Shown: positions 33,018 through 41,045, counted from the first letter of the stretch. The stretch: DNA of 64,000 bases from Alphaproteobacteria bacterium (GCA_965261735.1 OZ253470.1:3712001-3776000); one strand, 5' to 3'. Translations and numbers: made by a program. The notes: generated by a model from the letters alone, not told the origin.

Positions 33018-34744
33018 CTAGAATCGACGATTGAGACGTATCACGAGCGTGGCCGCGCCGGCCGCCTCCCGCATGTGGCCGGGCTCGTGCTGGTAGAGCA
33101 GGTTGGCACCAAGGTCGACGCCACGAAAGGGCGTGAACGCGTAGGAGACCTCCAGGTCGATCTCGCGCCCTCCCGCAACCAGCTCCACGCCCTCGCGCGA
33201 ATGGGTAACGGCGCCGCTGGCATAGTCGATACCTGTCGGGACGACCGCCCTCGCCCCTGCGCGCCAGGCCCGCAGCGGCTGCGAGATCGACAGGCCGAGG
33301 CGATCTCCGCCCGCGACGACGCCCGCTGCCAGGAGGCTCACGCCGTAGCTCGAGGTTGCGATCTCGGTGAAGTCCTGCAGTAGCCCGACCCCGGTATCGT
33401 CGACCCGGGTAACGCCTTGGGCGGTATATGCGGCCAGCGTCCATTTATCGCTCACGGGGAGCACACCAGAGAGGCCGGCGAACATGGTTCGTGCCCCCGA
33501 GAAAGAATCATAGGCGCCAGAGGCGACGCTATCGAGGACGCTCCCGTCCTCGGTCAGGGTGCCGAATCGCGCGCTCCAGCGAAGCTCGGGTGCGCGGCCG
33601 CGCGCGAGCTCGATGAACGCGGCGTGACGGGCGCGGCTCCCATGGAGTTCGCCGAAATCCCGCTCGCCGCTGGCAACCGCGAGCGCGAGGCGAGTACGCG
33701 CGCCCGCGGCGAGCTCGACGGCCAGGTGTTCGCCCTGTCCGACCATCGCCAGATACGGCGAGGCGAGGGGTGCCTTGGCCAGAAAAAGATCGGCGGGCGC
33801 GCCGGCGAGCGCCGCGGCGCCGAGGAGGTCCATGAGCGCGGCGCCGAAGCCGAGCGCCATTCGTGCGTTGCCGGAGAGGGGAGCCGAGAACGCGAGTTCC
33901 GGATTCTCGATCGCCGGGTTCGCGTTATCGGTTTCGCGCCAGCCGACCGGCGCGCCCGGAAGCTGGCCTTGGGTCAGCGTGAAAGCGAAGGACAGTCGTG
34001 CATCCGCTCCGACGTCAAGGGTGTCGGCCCGGCGCTCCTGGTTGTGCGCCAGCAGGTTCTCGAGGTCGAGCCCCTCATCGGCGGCCAGCGCCAGCGCCGA
34101 AAGATCGGCGAGATAGGCGCGGCCAAAGGAATCGAGGACGATGGCGTTGGTGAGCGCGGGCGCTCCTACGAGTGCATCGCCAAAGGCCGCGCCCAAAGTC
34201 AGGGTCGTCGCATCGAGATCGGCCCCACTCCCTTTGCCGGCTGCCACCGAAAGGGTGCCGAGCGGCGCCAGGGCCGCGCTCAGGTTCAGGAGACCCTGGC
34301 CGACGCCGGCGAGCCCGAGATCGGTCGCGGTCGTGAGCAGGATTTGCACCGCCTGCTCTGGCGTCAGCCCGGGGAATCGCTCGAGCATGAGCGCCACGCC
34401 CCCGCTCACCTGGGGCGCCGAGAACGACGTGCCGCTCGCCGTCACCGTGCCGCCGCCGACCGCCGTGGTCACGATGTTCTCGCCCGGCGCGACGAGGGTT
34501 GCCGTTGCGGTGTCCCCGGCACGGTTGCTGAACGAGGAGATGGCGTTGTTGGCGTCGACCGCGCCCACGGCGATCATGCGGCCGAGGGCATCGAAATTGC
34601 CGAGGCCGACGGCGCCGTGGAAGCCCTCGGGGCAGGGCACCGTGGCGCTGCAGTTGGAGAGGCGGGCGGGAAACTGGACCTCGGTGCCGAAACCCGAGCC
34701 GCCTTCGTTGCCGGCCGCGGACACGATGACGACCCCAGCCGCCA
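33018..34744 (-). pseudogene. S8 subtilisin-family peptidase with beta-barrel-like C-terminus; 5' part lost at an ISKra4 boundary
   Basis: VSAAGN, SSFSN, LVAPG, SGTSFSAP present; the N-terminal catalytic Asp/His region is absent; ends in terminal Phe. Confidence 0.85.
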
Positions 34745-36380
34745 GGGTGCGAGTCTCGCATGGCAGTGATGTCTGCGGCTTGGTTCGTTGAGTTCAGGCA
34801 GCGATTGCCATGGCTGCTGCACGTGGACTGATGTTGTCGTTGGCCGGTGTGTCGGTTGCGCTGATCAGGGCCTTCCATGCGCGCTCGAAGCGGCCGGATT
34901 TGATCAGGGCGCGGAAGGTCAGAACAGCCTGTCCGCCGACGATCCGCCAGCGCATGCCGGAGCGCTTCATGCGCTGTGTCACCAGGGATCTTGTTGGCAG
35001 CCTCGACCACGCCTGAGCCGATGGCGATGCCCTCTTCCTTCAGGGCGTGGTAGCGCATGCGATGGCGATGCTTGCGGAAGAAGGCGAGTTCCCGCTCGGT
35101 CTCGGCCCGGTCCGGCGCAGCGGCGGCATCGCGAAGGTGGCGCAGCGCCCGGATCACCTTGGCGACGCCACGGGGATCGTGACGGAGGATCTCGCGGTAC
35201 TTCTCGAACCAGCCGGGCGCCACGGCATGGTCGGACGCGGTTTGCAGATGTTCGCAAGCATGCCAGAAGTCGATCACCTCGGTTTCGGGCGACAGGGTCT
35301 CCAGGAAGGTCCAGTTGTCGGCGGCGCCATCGGCGATAGCGACGATCCCGATCTCGGGGCGTGCTCGCCTGATGTGTGCGACTTCGCTTGCAAGCTGCGC
35401 CTTCAGCGTGAGCTTGCCGCTCTCCGGCATGGGGCCGAGATAGAGGGTCTTCAGGCGCTTGCCCTCGGCGTCGTGGAAGGAGACCGTGCCGCAGGCGGCC
35501 TCGCGCCAGGAGGCCTTGGCGCGACCGTCCTCGCCGGGTCTCAGCGGCACCATGACGCCGTCGAGGGAGACCGAGGCGGTGGTCGCGTCCTGCGGTATGC
35601 CCTCGGCCTCACGGATGCTGCCCAGCGTCTCCGGGCCGAGGCTCTCCCAGCATTCGTGCATGCTCAGGGTCAGGCGCTCACCGACGGCGTCATGGCGCCG
35701 GTCTTCGCAAAGAACGCCGCCGCTTCCCGGGCCGTGCAGCGACCCATCATCAGCAGACCGAGTTCGGCCGCCGGCCGCGTCAGGTAATCGTCGACGAGGC
35801 CCAGGCTCTCGTCGACCGGCCACCGGCGATGCCCCGCTCGCGCCGCTGCGGTAACGCGCTCGCCGGTAGGCGAGCGAGGTCATGATCGTCTTCGGCGTCA
35901 CCGCGACCCGGAACCAGCTCTGCCCGTCCCGCTCGATCCGGGAAGCGCCATCGTCCCGGTTCTCGATGACGGCGCCCATGACATCGCGAGCGAACTCGTT
36001 CGTGGCCTCACGCACCCGCAACTCGACCTCCTCGGGCGCCTCGGGGCGCGGCTCGGAACGAAGCTCCTCGCGACACAGTGCGAGCACCCGGGCGGCCGCC
36101 TCGACGACCCGAGGAGGCAGGCCGGAAAGATCGATGGACGAAGGCGCCGGAGGCGGGGATACTGCCATGGGAATGCCCCCGATGTTGGGTTTCGAGACAC
36201 GGCATCGTACCGCTTCTGGCGGTGCGGAGCGTTCCCACCTTCCCCTGCTCGACCCTGCCGTCGTGACAAAATCCTGCCTTGGAGCGGCCCATTGTCACGA
36301 ATAGCCGTTTTCGGCCGTTCGTCTCGACACAAAAACGCACTAAATCAATGACTTAGATTTTCCATACCAGACCCACACCC
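34745..36380 (-). mobile_element. ISKra4-like element, full length, frameshifted transposase
   Basis: Imperfect TIRs gggtgtgggtctggtatgg / gggtgcgagtctcgcatgg; no matching TSD. Confidence 0.88.
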
Positions 36381-36743: not shown

Positions 36744-37321
36744 CGGCTGGCACCGATGGGGGCGACTGACAGTCGATAACTAGCCTAGTTCAACCGGGCG
36801 CAAGCCCTGTCGAAGCCACCGCTCGAAAATGGCGAGTAAGGAGCCTCCACCGTCAGGACTATGTTTTTGCGAGCAGCGAGTTGCACTCGTTGACCACGTC
36901 ATTGTCGGCTTCCTCCTCACCGGGCAGGACCGCCCACTGCTCGGCAAGTTTGCGCCGATCACCGAAATTGTTGAGCACGTCGGATGTCGCCTCCGGATCC
37001 GATCGAGCCCGCTCCGCGCAGAGCCCTGCTCGATAGGAAACGACCGCATCGCTGATTTGCACTCTCCATCGTCCTGGTAGTGACTTGCCAGCCGATCCAG
37101 CTGGAGATGAATGGCCCCACCACCAAGCCAATCACCAGGAAGATTATGCGCGGCCTCCACTCCTGAATTATCGTAACTACCCAGGTACCCCGCTCCTGAC
37201 CGCGAGAGGATGATGTAGGTGGTCGCCGGGGCCGGGTTTCCGCCGCCGCGTCGTTGATCGTCTCTTGACTCCATAGAATCGGGCGTCTATGGGTTGCGCT
37301 CTCGTGTGACGGGAGCGGCGC

Positions 37322-37987
37322 GTGGGATATTTCGGGTCGAAGGCGACGAGCGGTCTGTGCCAGGCGCTGATTGCGCTGATGCCGCCGCACAGCGTTTACA
37401 TCGAGAGCCACCTGGGGGGCGGTGCGCTGATGAAGCGCAAGCCAACGGGCGTGCGCTCGATCGGCATCGACCGCGATGCGCAGGCGCTCGAGGCCTTTGC
37501 CTGTGACTACCCGGTCGAGTTGGTGCATGGCTGTGCCCATGCCTTTTTGGCCTCGTTCCCGTTTCTGGGCCCGGAGCTGGTCTACAGCGATCCCCCCTAT
37601 CTGCACGCGACCCGCCGTTCGGCACGGCGCTATCGCTTCGACTTCGAGGAGGTCGACCATGTCGCGCTCCTGGACCTGCTCAAGGATCTGCCCTGCCAGG
37701 TGATGGTCTCGGGCCATCCCTCGGCGCTCTATGACGAGATGCTGGCGGGCTGGCGCAGTCTGGCGCTGCAGGTGACGACCCAGGCCCAGGTGCGGACCGA
37801 GGTCGTGTGGTTCAACTTCGCGCCCGACCGGGTGCATTGGGCGAGCTACGCAGGCCGGAACTTCACCGACCGCCAGCGCATCAAGCGTAAGGCGGCCAAC
37901 TGGGGCCGGCGTTACAAGGCCTTGCCGGCGGGCGAACGCCTCGCGGTGCTGGCCGCCATGATGGCCGTCGATGCCGAGGACCCGTGA
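37322..37987 (+). CDS. D12-class (Dam-like) N6-adenine DNA methyltransferase, 221 aa
   Basis: YFGSK, YIESHLGGGA (SAM binding), YSDPPY (catalytic), VMVSG, RTEVVW. Confidence 0.88.
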   Translation: MGYFGSKATSGLCQALIALMPPHSVYIESHLGGGALMKRKPTGVRSIGIDRDAQALEAFACDYPVELVHGCAHAFLASFPFLGPELVYSDPPYLHATRRSARRYRFDFEEVDHVALLDLLKDLPCQVMVSGHPSALYDEMLAGWRSLALQVTTQAQVRTEVVWFNFAPDRVHWASYAGRNFTDRQRIKRKAANWGRRYKALPAGERLAVLAAMMAVDAEDP

Positions 37988-39522
37988 CGCTGTCGCGCTG
38001 GCACGAGGACCTCGCCGCCCATGACGAGGCCTTCGCGTGCCTGCAAGATCTTCTTGACCCCTCATCCTTCGCAACCACAGTCGTCAAGGCCTTCGGGGAA
38101 TGGGGCCAGGGGCTGTTGCGCCTGGCCACGGCGCTCGTCCGGGAGAATGCCGCGCTCGAGCGGGAGAACGCGACCCTGCGGGACCGCATCGCCGAGCTCG
38201 AGCGGAGCGCGGCGCTTGACAGCACCACCAGCAGCAAGCCGCCCGCCAGCGACGGCCTGCGCAAGAAGAGCCGAACCCAGAGGCGCACCCGAAGCCAGCG
38301 CGGCAAGTCCGGCAGGCCAAGCGGCGGCCAGCCGGGCCACAAGGGAACGACGCTGGCGCGGACCGAGAGCCCGGACCATGTTGTGGATCATGACCCCTCC
38401 GCCTGTTCGGGCTGCGGCGCACCGCTGTCGGACGCCGACCGTCACCGCGCGCCCGTCTGTCGACAGGTCTTCGATGTGCCCGAGCCACGCCCCCTGGAGG
38501 TCACCGAACACCGCGCCCATCGCTGCCTCTGCGGCGCCTGCGCCACCGTGACAGGAGCCGTCTTCGCGGACGGCGTGACCGCCCCGGTCCAGTACGGGCC
38601 ACGCATCACCGCCTGGGTGAGCTACCTGCTGTACGCCCAGTTCGTTCCCGAGAAGCGCTTGGCCGAACTCATGAGCGACCTCTTCGCAGTGTCCATCTCC
38701 ACAGCCACGATCACCGCCATGGGCCGGCGAACCGCCAGGCGCTTCGAGCCCTTCCTCGCCCATGTCGCAGACGTGATCCGCACAGCGGTCCCGGTCAAGC
38801 ACCTCGACGAAACCGGCCTGCGGATCGCCGCCCGTACCCGCTGGCTCCACGTGCTGTGCACCCCATTCCTGACCGTCCTGCGCATCGGCGCGGGACGCGG
38901 CGATGTCGAAAAGGACCTCGAAGGCATCCTCATCCATGACGATTACGCCGCCTACTTCACCCTCAAGGGCGTGCGCCACGGCGCCTGCAACGCCCATCAC
39001 CTGCGCGAACTCCAGGCCCTGATCGACATCGAGAAGGAAGACTGGGCAAAGAGCATGCACCGCCTCCTTGAGCGCGCACACAGGGCTACCCGCTTCTCCC
39101 GTGAGAACGGCCGCGACGCGCCCGCCTCCCTGGTGGCCCGGATCTCGCGGGCCTGGGCCCGCATCCTCGACCACGCCATCGCCTTCCACGAGGCGCAGCC
39201 GCCGCTCCGGACCGGCAAGCGCGGACGAAAGAAACGCCGCATCGGTCATAACCTCGCGCTCCGCCTCCGCAAGCACAAGGAGGGATGCCTGCGATTCCTC
39301 ACCGACCCGCGCACGCCGTTTACGAACAATGAGGCCGAACGTGACCTCCGAATGGCCAAGCTGCGCCAGAAGATCTCCGGTGGCTTCCGCTCCGAGAGGG
39401 GTGCCTGCAACTTCGCCAGAATGCGTGCCGTCATCGCCACCGCCCGAAAGCAAGGCTGGAACGTCCTCCAGACCCTGGTGCATCCCGATCCGATGCAACT
39501 AATCCCCCAACTGCGCCTCTGA
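37984..39522 (+). CDS. IS66 transposase (TnpC-like)
   Basis: Coiled coil, SSKPPASD, GGQPGHKG, CSGC, HLDETG, LIHDD, CNAHHLRE, FTNNEAERDLR. Exact start uncertain. Confidence 0.93.
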   Translation: MTLSRWHEDLAAHDEAFACLQDLLDPSSFATTVVKAFGEWGQGLLRLATALVRENAALERENATLRDRIAELERSAALDSTTSSKPPASDGLRKKSRTQRRTRSQRGKSGRPSGGQPGHKGTTLARTESPDHVVDHDPSACSGCGAPLSDADRHRAPVCRQVFDVPEPRPLEVTEHRAHRCLCGACATVTGAVFADGVTAPVQYGPRITAWVSYLLYAQFVPEKRLAELMSDLFAVSISTATITAMGRRTARRFEPFLAHVADVIRTAVPVKHLDETGLRIAARTRWLHVLCTPFLTVLRIGAGRGDVEKDLEGILIHDDYAAYFTLKGVRHGACNAHHLRELQALIDIEKEDWAKSMHRLLERAHRATRFSRENGRDAPASLVARISRAWARILDHAIAFHEAQPPLRTGKRGRKKRRIGHNLALRLRKHKEGCLRFLTDPRTPFTNNEAERDLRMAKLRQKISGGFRSERGACNFARMRAVIATARKQGWNVLQTLVHPDPMQLIPQLRL

Positions 39523-40179
39523 GAACACCGGCACCGCTACCAGCCCGGACCCCCACGATCCCTCACATACAAACGCTCGGGCCAATCAGACCTGGGTAGT
39601 TACGAATTATCTTCACCTGTTCGAGTCCTTTTCGCCTGACATTTCCCAGATAACCGTCAAATCGACTCCGACAGTACCTGATTTTTCACCGACCATCGGA
39701 TTCGTTCACCAGAGCGTCTTGATGGCGCGCGTCGCGGTGGGCCTGCTCGTCCCGATCAGCTCATGCCGAGCGGGCGGCAGCTCGAAATGCAAGGACTGGA
39801 CGTGGGGGGAATTCCGCGCCCGTTGGCCGCCCTCGGCGCGTTGAATGAGCTGGTTTCTTGCACCAGGAAGACCGACACGACTTGATCACGGATACAACAG
39901 AGAGTTCTTCAGCAGCCTCGGCTAAAAGCAGGCATTCTAGTGTGAGTGCGCCTAACGTCCACTAGTGCGTCACATAATGACTGGGAGGAACTACGCATGA
40001 ATAAGTCATTGTTAGCGTCGTGCCGAGCGCTCTTCCTCGCCGCGGCTTTCGCTGCGACTGCCGTTCTCGCCGGCGTGGCCCCGGCGGAAGCCGCCGCGTC
40101 CAAGCTGAAAATCCTCTTTGGGACGCCGCCGACGACATACGCCATCCCCTACTACCTCGCTATCGACAAAGGCTGGTTT

Positions 40180-41045
40180 CTTGCCTATCCGGTTAACGCC
40201 CATGACCGCTACATGTAGGGTGCCGCCACTCTCCCGAGTAAAGCTCGGCATAGGTTGGAGCAGAGGTGTCGCCCGCGATGCCGAGCAATGAGCGGAAGGC
40301 GTTGAACGGGTAGAACCGCCTGTTGAAGCGGAAGGTGAACTCGTTGAGGTAGGCTTGTAGGTGCTGGTGGCTAACGCCGTGGTGGATACCGATCAGCCAC
40401 GTCTTCAGGTTGGCGAAAACCAGATGGATGATCGGCAGGTATTGCTCGGCAACCTCTGGATCACCACACTCGGCAACAGCGAAGTGCTCATAGCCGCGCT
40501 TCCCGAGGCCAGCATAGCCGCTCCAATCGTCAGTAACGATCAGCGATCGCGGCGCGACGGTGCTCTCGACGAACCCACAGAGCGACTCGGCGCTACGGTC
40601 GAGCACGACGGCGAGCCGAACGCGTCCGGCATAGCGTCCGTCTTTCCGGTTGTCGAGCTTGGTGCCCGGCTTTCGATGACGCACCTCGATGGCACAGGAG
40701 ACGGGAACCTTGTGGTGAACACCACGGCCTTCCCCACGCGTTCGCCCGCCAACCCAGGTTTCGTCCACCTCAACATGGTTCTTGGGCTGTCCACCGATCC
40801 TGTCTTGGTTGGGCCGCACCATGCCCGAGCGGAGCTTGTGGAGAATTTGAAAGGCCGTCTCCCCAGCGGGCTTTCTCCAGGTAGGCGGCGCAGGCCGCAT
40901 CATCGGCGAAAAGTCGCTGGAACTCGGGTAGCGAATGCGGGAATGGGAGATCGGCGCGGTCGAGAACATCCATGGCGCGCTCCCCTATATCCGGTTTGCG
41001 CCCACTCTAGCCCTAGTGGGTGTGGGTGTAAACCGGATAGGTAAG
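40180..41045 (-). mobile_element. IS1595-family copy 7 (866 bp, internal deletion)
   Basis: TSD gctggttt / gctggttc; deletion between two gagacggc 8-mers. Confidence 0.92.

Follow-up and report, generated by a model that had tools for sequence, protein, structure and literature searches.

Why should an insertion sequence (IS) of the IS66 family carry, directly in front of its transposase gene and overlapping it, a gene for a protein that resembles DNA adenine methyltransferases? This question is raised by a 2431-bp element at positions 37173-39603 of a 64,000-nucleotide stretch of DNA from an Alphaproteobacteria bacterium (GCA_965261735.1 OZ253470.1:3712001-3776000), hereafter called the window. 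IS66 is a large family, and its accessory proteins and their regulation are poorly understood. On the basis of homology and comparative sequence data, we lean, with moderate confidence, towards the answer that the upstream open reading frame (ORF1) encodes an autorepressor, which would throttle expression of the transposase through an operator in the promoter.

The element is intact and of the ISBst12 type. Its features, with positions in the window, are as follows.

37165-37172, no strand: left copy of the target duplication, GAATTATC, present as a single copy in the uninterrupted paralogue of the site (L183).
37173-37186, plus strand: left terminal inverted repeat (TIR), GTAACTACCCAGGT, perfect, 14 bp; it also bounds the relatives, in the same form or as a one-base variant (GTAACTRCCCAGGT).
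37265-37293, plus strand: putative promoter, assigned by homology, with TTGACT (37265-37270), a 17-nt spacer and TATGGG (37288-37293).
37271-37292, no strand: inverted repeat resembling an operator, CCATAGA-N8-TCTATGG (core CATAG-N10-CTATG), which runs into the -10 hexamer.
37297-37317, plus strand: hairpin in the 5' untranslated region (5'-UTR), its 3' arm holding a Shine-Dalgarno-like GGGAG just before the GTG start.
37322-37987, plus strand: ORF1, 221 amino acids (aa), GTG start, a Dam-like protein of the Upf31 family lacking the target-recognition domain.
37984-39522, plus strand: ORF2, 512 aa, GTG start, DDE transposase of the IS66 family.
39590-39603, minus strand: right TIR, the exact reverse complement of the left.
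39604-39611, no strand: right copy of the target duplication, GAATTATC, from comparison with the paralogue.

The GTG start of ORF2 overlaps the ORF1 stop codon as GTGA. ORF2 matched the transposase model NF033517 at 285.7 bits (cut-off 180) and PF03050 at 2e-41, and DUF6444 and zf-IS66 also matched; the further ORFs listed within the element lie in other frames or on other strands of 67% G+C DNA and belong to no family. The tnpA and tnpB genes of the canonical three-gene IS66 type were not found in the element, in which ORF1 alone precedes the transposase gene, and the arrangement of two coupled ORFs departs from the single ORF of the ISBst12 group. TIRs beginning with GTAA and an 8-bp target duplication are the marks of the IS66 family, and both were found here in GTAACTACCCAGGT and GAATTATC. 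These marks are stated in part in the excerpts used here of PMC12898284, according to which elements of the ISBst12 type are known and active. A repeat finder reported a 16-nt pairing at 100% identity (37171-37186 with 39590-39605) instead of 14 nt, because two nucleotides of the duplicated target happen to pair. The original prediction, made from the sequence alone, had described an intact IS66 element with perfect 14-bp TIRs and an 8-bp duplication, enclosing a 221-aa methyltransferase-like ORF and a transposase ORF that overlap by GTGA, the small gene occupying the place of the accessory genes of classical IS66 elements; all of this was confirmed.

The ORF1 protein is related over its whole length to Upf31 of IncP-1beta plasmids (42-45% identity; 221 vs 224 aa). 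A tblastn comparison with Upf31 gave 44-46% identity over residues 1-194, and the alignment with Upf31 of plasmid pHB44 ran from end to end at 42-43% identity. Common to both proteins are the Y-G-K, E-HLGGG and DPPY motifs and a basic C-terminal tail with a conserved Trp, a residue that was singled out by the authors of a study of Upf31 from pBP136 and R751 (Elg et al. 2025, PMC11997246; cited here and below from parts of its text). According to those parts, Upf31 produced in methylase-free Escherichia coli gave neither Dam-type protection nor a signal on SMRT (single-molecule real-time) sequencing, whereas with full-length hybrid Upf31 the activity of a 68-bp fragment carrying the upf31 promoter fell from 4.76 XylE units to 0.09. 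The Upf31 phenotype required the C-terminal domain, and the likely operator named by the authors is the inverted repeat 5'-CAGCATCG-3' (PMC11997246). In the same parts of the text, the homologue search covers plasmids only and insertion sequences are not mentioned.

The region upstream of ORF1 also contains an inverted repeat between the -35 and -10 hexamers; the window stretch 37265-37294 reads TTGACTCCATAGAATCGGGCGTCTATGGGT. To count it across relatives, 155 loci were reduced to 94 distinct upstream regions. The pattern TTGAC-N2-4-ATAG-N10-CTAT occurred in 87 of them, always with a spacing of 10, compared with 0.67 of 94 for shuffled sequences. The seven misses comprised four one-base variants of the repeat, one region with GTAAC as its -35, one departing further (L084) and one that was disrupted. 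The left half-site, ATAG, has no role in the promoter and yet is conserved, which therefore indicates a bound factor. The only CATAG within the element is the operator copy, and no operator half-sites were found near the element ends. Four of the seven exact CATAG-N10-CTATG sites in the genome of origin belong to the IS copies, and a reversed-pattern control gave one site. The three remaining sites, considered as operators, were taken as chance occurrences; they lie in ORF-dense DNA with no related gene nearby.

The same layout was found outside the insertion sequences. Upstream of upf31, pHB44 has TTGACAGCATCG-N10-CGATGCT and a second copy farther up, and this upstream stretch is 100% identical in NC_001735.4 (53,423 bp), which we take to be R751. 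Judging from the two upstream sequences and from the authors' Discussion in the parts cited (PMC11997246), the 68-bp upf31 fragment probably contains the repeat. The broader pattern CAT[A/C]G-N10-C[T/G]ATG was present upstream of six of ten non-IS homologues (plasmid and phage loci). All six are plasmid loci that no IS66 transposase adjoins, and plasmids from Xanthomonas, Shewanella, Pseudomonas, Citrobacter and Klebsiella are among those with the repeat; the repeat is therefore tied to the protein and not to the transposase.

The relatives have TTGACA-17-TATGCT or TATACT at the position of the putative promoter, and the equivalent upf31 region falls in the stretch whose 68-bp fragment has promoter activity (PMC11997246, in the parts cited). 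Between promoter and start codon, the fold of 37288-37335 had a free energy of -18.1 kcal/mol (z -2.2), and three of 200 shuffles folded as well. At the corresponding position in a second lineage lies a hairpin of seven pairs, five of them with compensatory changes, in 43 sequences. There is thus modest support for a 5'-UTR hairpin over the ribosome-binding site. Two of the element's three GANTC sites lie in the putative promoter (37267-37280), a GACTC overlapping the -35 and a GAATC in the spacer. GANTC is the CcrM-type motif; control through these sites was considered and dropped, the sites not being conserved in relatives.

We propose that the ORF1 protein, probably as a dimer, would bind CATAG-N10-CTATG over the -10 and, when bound, would repress a single promoter serving both ORF1 and ORF2, the latter being translationally coupled. 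Through this negative feedback the element would limit its own transposase: much would be made on arrival in a cell that has none of the protein, and little after the protein has built up or where several copies reside. Binding, dimerisation, repression and an effect on transposition are all predicted properties of the ORF1 protein, and autorepression by the IS protein is suggested by analogy with hybrid Upf31 as described in the parts of PMC11997246 cited. The strict conservation of the S-adenosylmethionine (SAM)-binding and DPPY motifs suggests a continuing need to bind the cofactor or to transfer a methyl group. The earlier idea that the IS might regulate itself with its own methylase is thus retained as regulation, at the promoter, and given up as methylation of the ends, near which no half-site lies.

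Several points weigh against autorepression. A consensus promoter scan of 37100-39700 returned 0 promoter-like sites, TATGGG failing its rule, and the window's own -10 is weak. Because the -10 hexamer and the right half of the repeat overlap, conservation of that half may in part be conservation of the promoter. Four of the ten non-IS homologues have no repeat upstream, namely those of Sphingobium and Burkholderia (the same sequence), of phage SEN5 and of Acinetobacter pBJ83. Invariant catalytic motifs are hard to explain in a pure DNA-binding repressor. The negative methylation data, as far as the cited parts of PMC11997246 go, concern a 42-45% identical plasmid protein in E. coli, and methylation of a rare long site, of single-stranded DNA or of RNA would probably escape the assay. 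The element was found in RNA libraries (12 runs of three studies), and contigs of X1, X6 and X10 bridge the ORF1/ORF2 junction; these contigs carry no starts, strand or level, some enter different flanks, and they are not proof of transcription, DNA carry-over being possible.

The motifs bring in the alternative that survives best, though we regard it as unlikely: that ORF1 is an active orphan DNA adenine methyltransferase, acting broadly or at a short motif on double-stranded DNA, which would shield the element or the DNA of its host from restriction or change the host methylome. The protein indeed has a D12/Dam-type core. A family profile built from 41 diverse members matched DpnM (1.6e-9), E. 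coli Dam (9.7e-6) and T4 Dam (5e-3), the PHROG families 56 and 1996, annotated 'DNA methyltransferase', match the ORF1 protein, and in the nearest Atlas clusters PF02086 was present in 42-82% of the members. The SAM motif HLGGGA (residues 30-35; G32-G34) and DPPY (90-93) are about 55 residues apart; G32, D90, P91 and P92 are invariant in the 41 members and G34 and Y93 at least 90% conserved, the catalytic motifs being invariant or nearly so in IS, plasmid and phage members alike. Conjugative plasmids and P2-like phages, both frequent carriers of orphan methylases, also have relatives.

The domain architecture argues the other way. ORF1 matched no Pfam family at E 0.01, and its sole NCBIfam match, TIGR00571 (Dam), scored 25.3 bits, below the cut-off of 114.85. 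Positions 2-62 of the profile correspond to DpnM 16-74 and positions 80-158 to DpnM 183-266, so that about 108 DpnM residues (about 91 in E. coli Dam) are replaced by about 17 profile positions. The stretch skipped in DpnM and Dam is the target-recognition domain; in the profile alignment, no such domain was found between motifs I-III and motif IV of the ORF1 family. The suspicion that the interval between the SAM and DPPY motifs leaves little room for the usual target-recognition domain was therefore well founded. After the core, the family has a conserved basic tail of about 45 residues (FTDRQRIKRKAANW...ERLAVL). Active methylation is opposed as well by the Upf31 result in methylase-free E. 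coli (PMC11997246, in the parts cited), the same result that speaks against the earlier suggestion of a near-non-specific methylase shielding the element or rewriting the host methylome. Moreover, restriction on entry is not faced by an IS itself, and a conserved operator inside the promoter would be left unexplained. Genome-wide methylation by the ORF1 protein is unlikely.

There is a slimmer chance that repression and methylation are combined in an epigenetic switch, in which the protein would bind and methylate its own operator or a few rare sites, and the methylation state would set transposase expression, a self-contained version of the Dam control of IS10 and IS50. Such a switch would reconcile the invariant catalytic motifs and the operator with the negative genome-wide result for Upf31, the more so as the construct used, pCW-LIC-upf31, may lack the operator, to judge from the parts of PMC11997246 cited. 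A site specified by 10 bases is rare (7 in the 5.03-Mb genome of origin), and there are adenines in each operator half-site. However, methylation in this family is conjectural and has no precedent within it, and half-site centres 15 bp apart are not an obvious geometry for a methylase dimer. In a wider form, which we consider doubtful, the Dam-like enzyme without a target-recognition domain would methylate its own operator and so set a heritable on/off mark for the transposase, and the module would have been recruited separately by transposase lineages, plasmids and phages.

Autorepression of a shared promoter concerns the gene pair, and the linkage of the two genes was examined across relatives. 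A word-indexed protein search with ORF1 yielded 4383 candidates, of which 3790 were relatives at E <= 0.001; among the best 120 no identity falls below 71%, and contigs of 1-3 kb, typical of repeats, are frequent. With a profile, the search reached 1060 clusters at E <= 1e-30. When one genome per species was scanned, 462 relatives came up, and in the best 80 loci of these (85-100% identity) an IS66 transposase gene follows downstream on the same strand in every case. Another 80 loci came from a scan of metagenomes that used a 71%-identical member as seed; 55 of them extend at least 900 nt downstream, and 49 of these 55 have the IS66 transposase there. The six exceptions are three in which the start of an IS66 transposase is cut by a nested IS, two copies of a deletion derivative of one such locus, and L160. 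Two loci that seemed to have the cassette before an IS1634-like transposase (L125 and L129) were rejected as such, being L135-type IS66 copies with a nested IS and a 379-bp deletion. In L160 (3-2484), an IS1634-like transposase ORF of 584 aa begins 14 nt after the Dam-like gene, up to the contig end; the transposase ORF may belong to a nested IS, or the cassette may have a fourth host, one outside IS66.

Among 84 loci, 67 TIR-bounded elements were recognized, with GTAACTRCCCAGGT ends 2.2-2.55 kb apart, and 66 were distinct by their flanks. Perfect 8-bp target duplications flank 50 of the 66, three have a duplication with one mismatch and 13 have none. The 50 perfect duplications are all different in sequence and A+T-rich; the gene pair therefore moves as a unit. 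The original prediction had inferred joint movement from the single insertion and had proposed scoring how often homologs lie within IS66 TIRs, and both the independent duplications and the counts of TIR-bounded elements and downstream transposases agree with it. The 4-nt overlap of ORF1 and ORF2 recurs in 70 of the 109 loci with both ORFs intact.

At least three transposase lineages stand behind ORF1: its own, one represented by L105, and L132 (NF033517 scores of 285.7, 234.8 and 223.2 bits, respectively). Between lineages the transposases are 19-34% identical and their N-termini unrelated, while the ORF1 proteins ahead of them are 64-83% identical. The first eight end bases are common to lineages one and two. 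L132, although its 27-nt ends (GTATCCGTTCAGACC...) are unrelated, shares promoter, operator, hairpin and gene with the others. The L132 element (72-2740) is inserted within another copy of a Dam-like gene (1-71), and its flank encodes ...ELVYSDPPYLLRTRTSARRY. A sibling IS without ORF1, with the same ends, is present in related genomes (L045 990-2628); it is 1639 bp long and has the single ORF typical of the ISBst12 group, a 479-aa transposase 52% identical to ORF2. Compared with this sibling, the transposase of the cassette-bearing elements has about 33 extra N-terminal residues (512 vs 479 aa). We conclude that promoter, operator, 5'-UTR hairpin and gene form a portable cassette, gained between the left end and the transposase gene. 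Upstream of the sibling's transposase gene (L045 1085-1115) lies TTGACATAG-N10-CGAT, one mismatch from the operator repeat; it is either chance or a remnant and, as a single case, supports no conclusion.

These comparisons bear on a further and improbable reading, that the protein is a transposition cofactor that would act on the transposase or on the element DNA (its ends or single-stranded intermediates) in place of the IS66 accessory proteins. The accessory-gene position, the translational coupling with its frequent 4-nt overlap and the extra N-terminal residues of the transposase would fit such a role. However, unrelated transposase N-termini behind such similar ORF1 proteins argue against a specific protein-protein interface, and direct binding to the transposase is judged unlikely because of them. 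In addition, the ends have no operator-like half-site, and close homologues live on plasmids and phages without any IS66 transposase.

The ORF1 gene is under purifying selection no weaker than that on the transposase gene: in 28 pairs from eight elements of its own lineage, the ratio of non-synonymous to synonymous substitution rates (dN/dS) was 0.08-0.30 for ORF1 and 0.15-0.51 for the transposase. A neutral or host-beneficial passenger with no role in the biology of the element is accordingly very improbable, even though ISs with passenger genes including methyltransferases are a recognised class, tIS (PMC11891212, in excerpt, quoting Siguier et al.): the selection just described, the retention of the gene in 80 of 80 genome loci (best 80 of 462) and 49 of 55 metagenome loci, and its retention in three transposase lineages with a promoter that also drives the transposase all stand against it.

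Relatives outside insertion sequences are more distant. In the plasmid collection, 191 records have a relative, all at <60% identity, and 134 of them are conjugative plasmids. The relative on IncP-1beta plasmids is upf31.0, the one on a Xanthomonas plasmid lies near TraA, TraD and StbB, and P2-like phages also carry one. On Pseudomonas pBYT5-1 (L188 1501-3011) and a Citrobacter plasmid (L189 1501-3011), an Upf31-like gene, whose promoter has a CATCG-N10-CGATG repeat, overlaps a gene downstream that is annotated as 8-oxoguanine DNA glycosylase, and this pair may be another two-gene module on the same cassette.

The IS-borne clade was absent from the annotated plasmid and phage collections. In a sample of 401 genomes of the phylum, eight had a match at E <= 1e-10; the only close match was in the genome of origin, and the other seven genomes gave 38-47% identity. 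The absence from sampled genomes and annotated collections fits a patchy, habitat-bound spread. Copies encoding a 99-100% identical protein were found (L006-L085) in assemblies labelled Alphaproteobacteria and Dehalococcoidia, and 86-92% identical copies in Longimicrobiales and Tectimicrobiota; some assemblies have well over ten copies of the element, and in some genomes the number runs to dozens. This distribution reflects either recent transfer between phyla within one habitat or binning error.

The insertion itself can be traced within the genome of origin. A paralogous sequence (L183 1322-1909) joins the left and right flanks contiguously with one GAATTATC, and insertion with target duplication is therefore directly proven. 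A search of 40 related genomes with the left flank gave no match; the empty site came from the paralogue. The insertion point falls in codons 2-4 of a 105-codon ORF (L183 1496-1813) that belongs to no Pfam family and that, in the paralogue, adjoins an ORF resembling an IS256-type transposase, as read by eye. The claim that the element splits a host gene thus holds for the insertion and is less certain for the gene: what is interrupted is an ORF, not a verified gene. The target is a sequence of about 600 bp that occurs twice in the genome, in the window (36763-37172 plus 39604-39789) and as L183 1322-1909; relative to the paralogue, the window copy has one indel, which frameshifts the 105-codon ORF.

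The 5.03-Mb genome, in one contig, has four copies of the element, three of them full-length at 100% identity, and the element has been active recently. The fourth copy (L004, G000:C1:2583885-2586259) lacks its first 56 bases and with them the left end; promoter, ORF1, ORF2 and right end are still there. Mobile DNA abounds in the surroundings. Immediately to the right of the element, an ORF at 40193-40969 (minus strand) has an IS1595/ISXO2-type transposase domain (PF12762, 6.8e-37), and to the left, at 34075-36168 (minus strand), lies a 697-aa ORF that matches no Pfam family and that looks transposase-like by eye in its middle part.

An abundant IS66 subgroup thus seems to carry its own regulator. 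If this is true, many environmental annotations of 'DNA adenine methylase' would denote transposon control genes, and methylome or restriction-modification inferences drawn from such annotations would be wrong. The unexplained plasmid gene upf31 and its repeats become tied to a far larger family in which gene and operator are conserved as a pair, which offers the plasmid and IS fields a simple, testable model. Having passed between transposase lineages, the cassette is a candidate for a natural 'plug-in' by which gene expression could be made self-limiting. In full-text literature searches, with ISfinder entries outside the comparison, no description of an IS66 element with a Dam-like gene was found; added here are the link to Upf31, with its published negative methylation result and autorepression, and the common operator.

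Among known systems, the ISBst12 group (ISBst12, ISDge4) is the closest in its transposase, a DDE enzyme with a leucine-zipper-like N-terminus (DUF6444) and a zinc finger, without tnpA and tnpB. The ends of ISDge4, GTGACTACTCAGCA and GTAACTGCTCAGCA in the excerpts of PMC12898284, resemble the GTAACT... ends of the element, and the 8-bp duplication is alike. Unlike that group, with its single ORF, the present element has a second, conserved and coupled upstream gene with a promoter and an operator, and it is about 0.8 kb longer than its cassette-less sibling (2431 vs 1639 bp). Upf31 is alike in size, Dam-like motifs, basic tail and an inverted repeat between the -35 and -10 of its own promoter. 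However, upf31 belongs to the plasmid backbone and is linked with the KorA/KorB regulon and with four groups of repeats, whereas the IS protein has one operator, with the half-site CATAG instead of CATCG, and a promoter that also drives the transposase. Dam, DpnM and T4 Dam have the core order Y-G-K, FxGxG-like, DPPY in common with ORF1, in which their target-recognition region of about 90-108 residues is absent, the curated thresholds are not reached and methylation is putative.

The tIS, such as IS220 of the IS1380 family (PMC11891212, in excerpt), likewise have their own ends and a methyltransferase-like gene besides the transposase. That example belongs to another IS family and was compared by description, whereas here the gene looks integrated in expression control and occurs in several lineages. 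That ORF1 is a passenger not involved in transposition, as the definition of tIS would have it, is doubtful, because purifying selection acts on the gene and its promoter serves the transposase as well. There are regulatory parallels as well. In IS10 and IS50, adenine methylation by Dam at the transposase promoter gates transposition; that control uses a host factor, whereas here the element would bring its own. InsA of IS1 is a small element-encoded DNA-binding repressor that binds the IS ends and limits transposase expression, and M.SsoII, the C5 methyltransferase of a restriction-modification system, doubles as an autorepressor at an operator in its own promoter. InsA and M.SsoII differ from ORF1 in fold and family; the proposed ORF1 repressor would resemble InsA in limiting transposase expression and M.SsoII in binding an operator at its own promoter.

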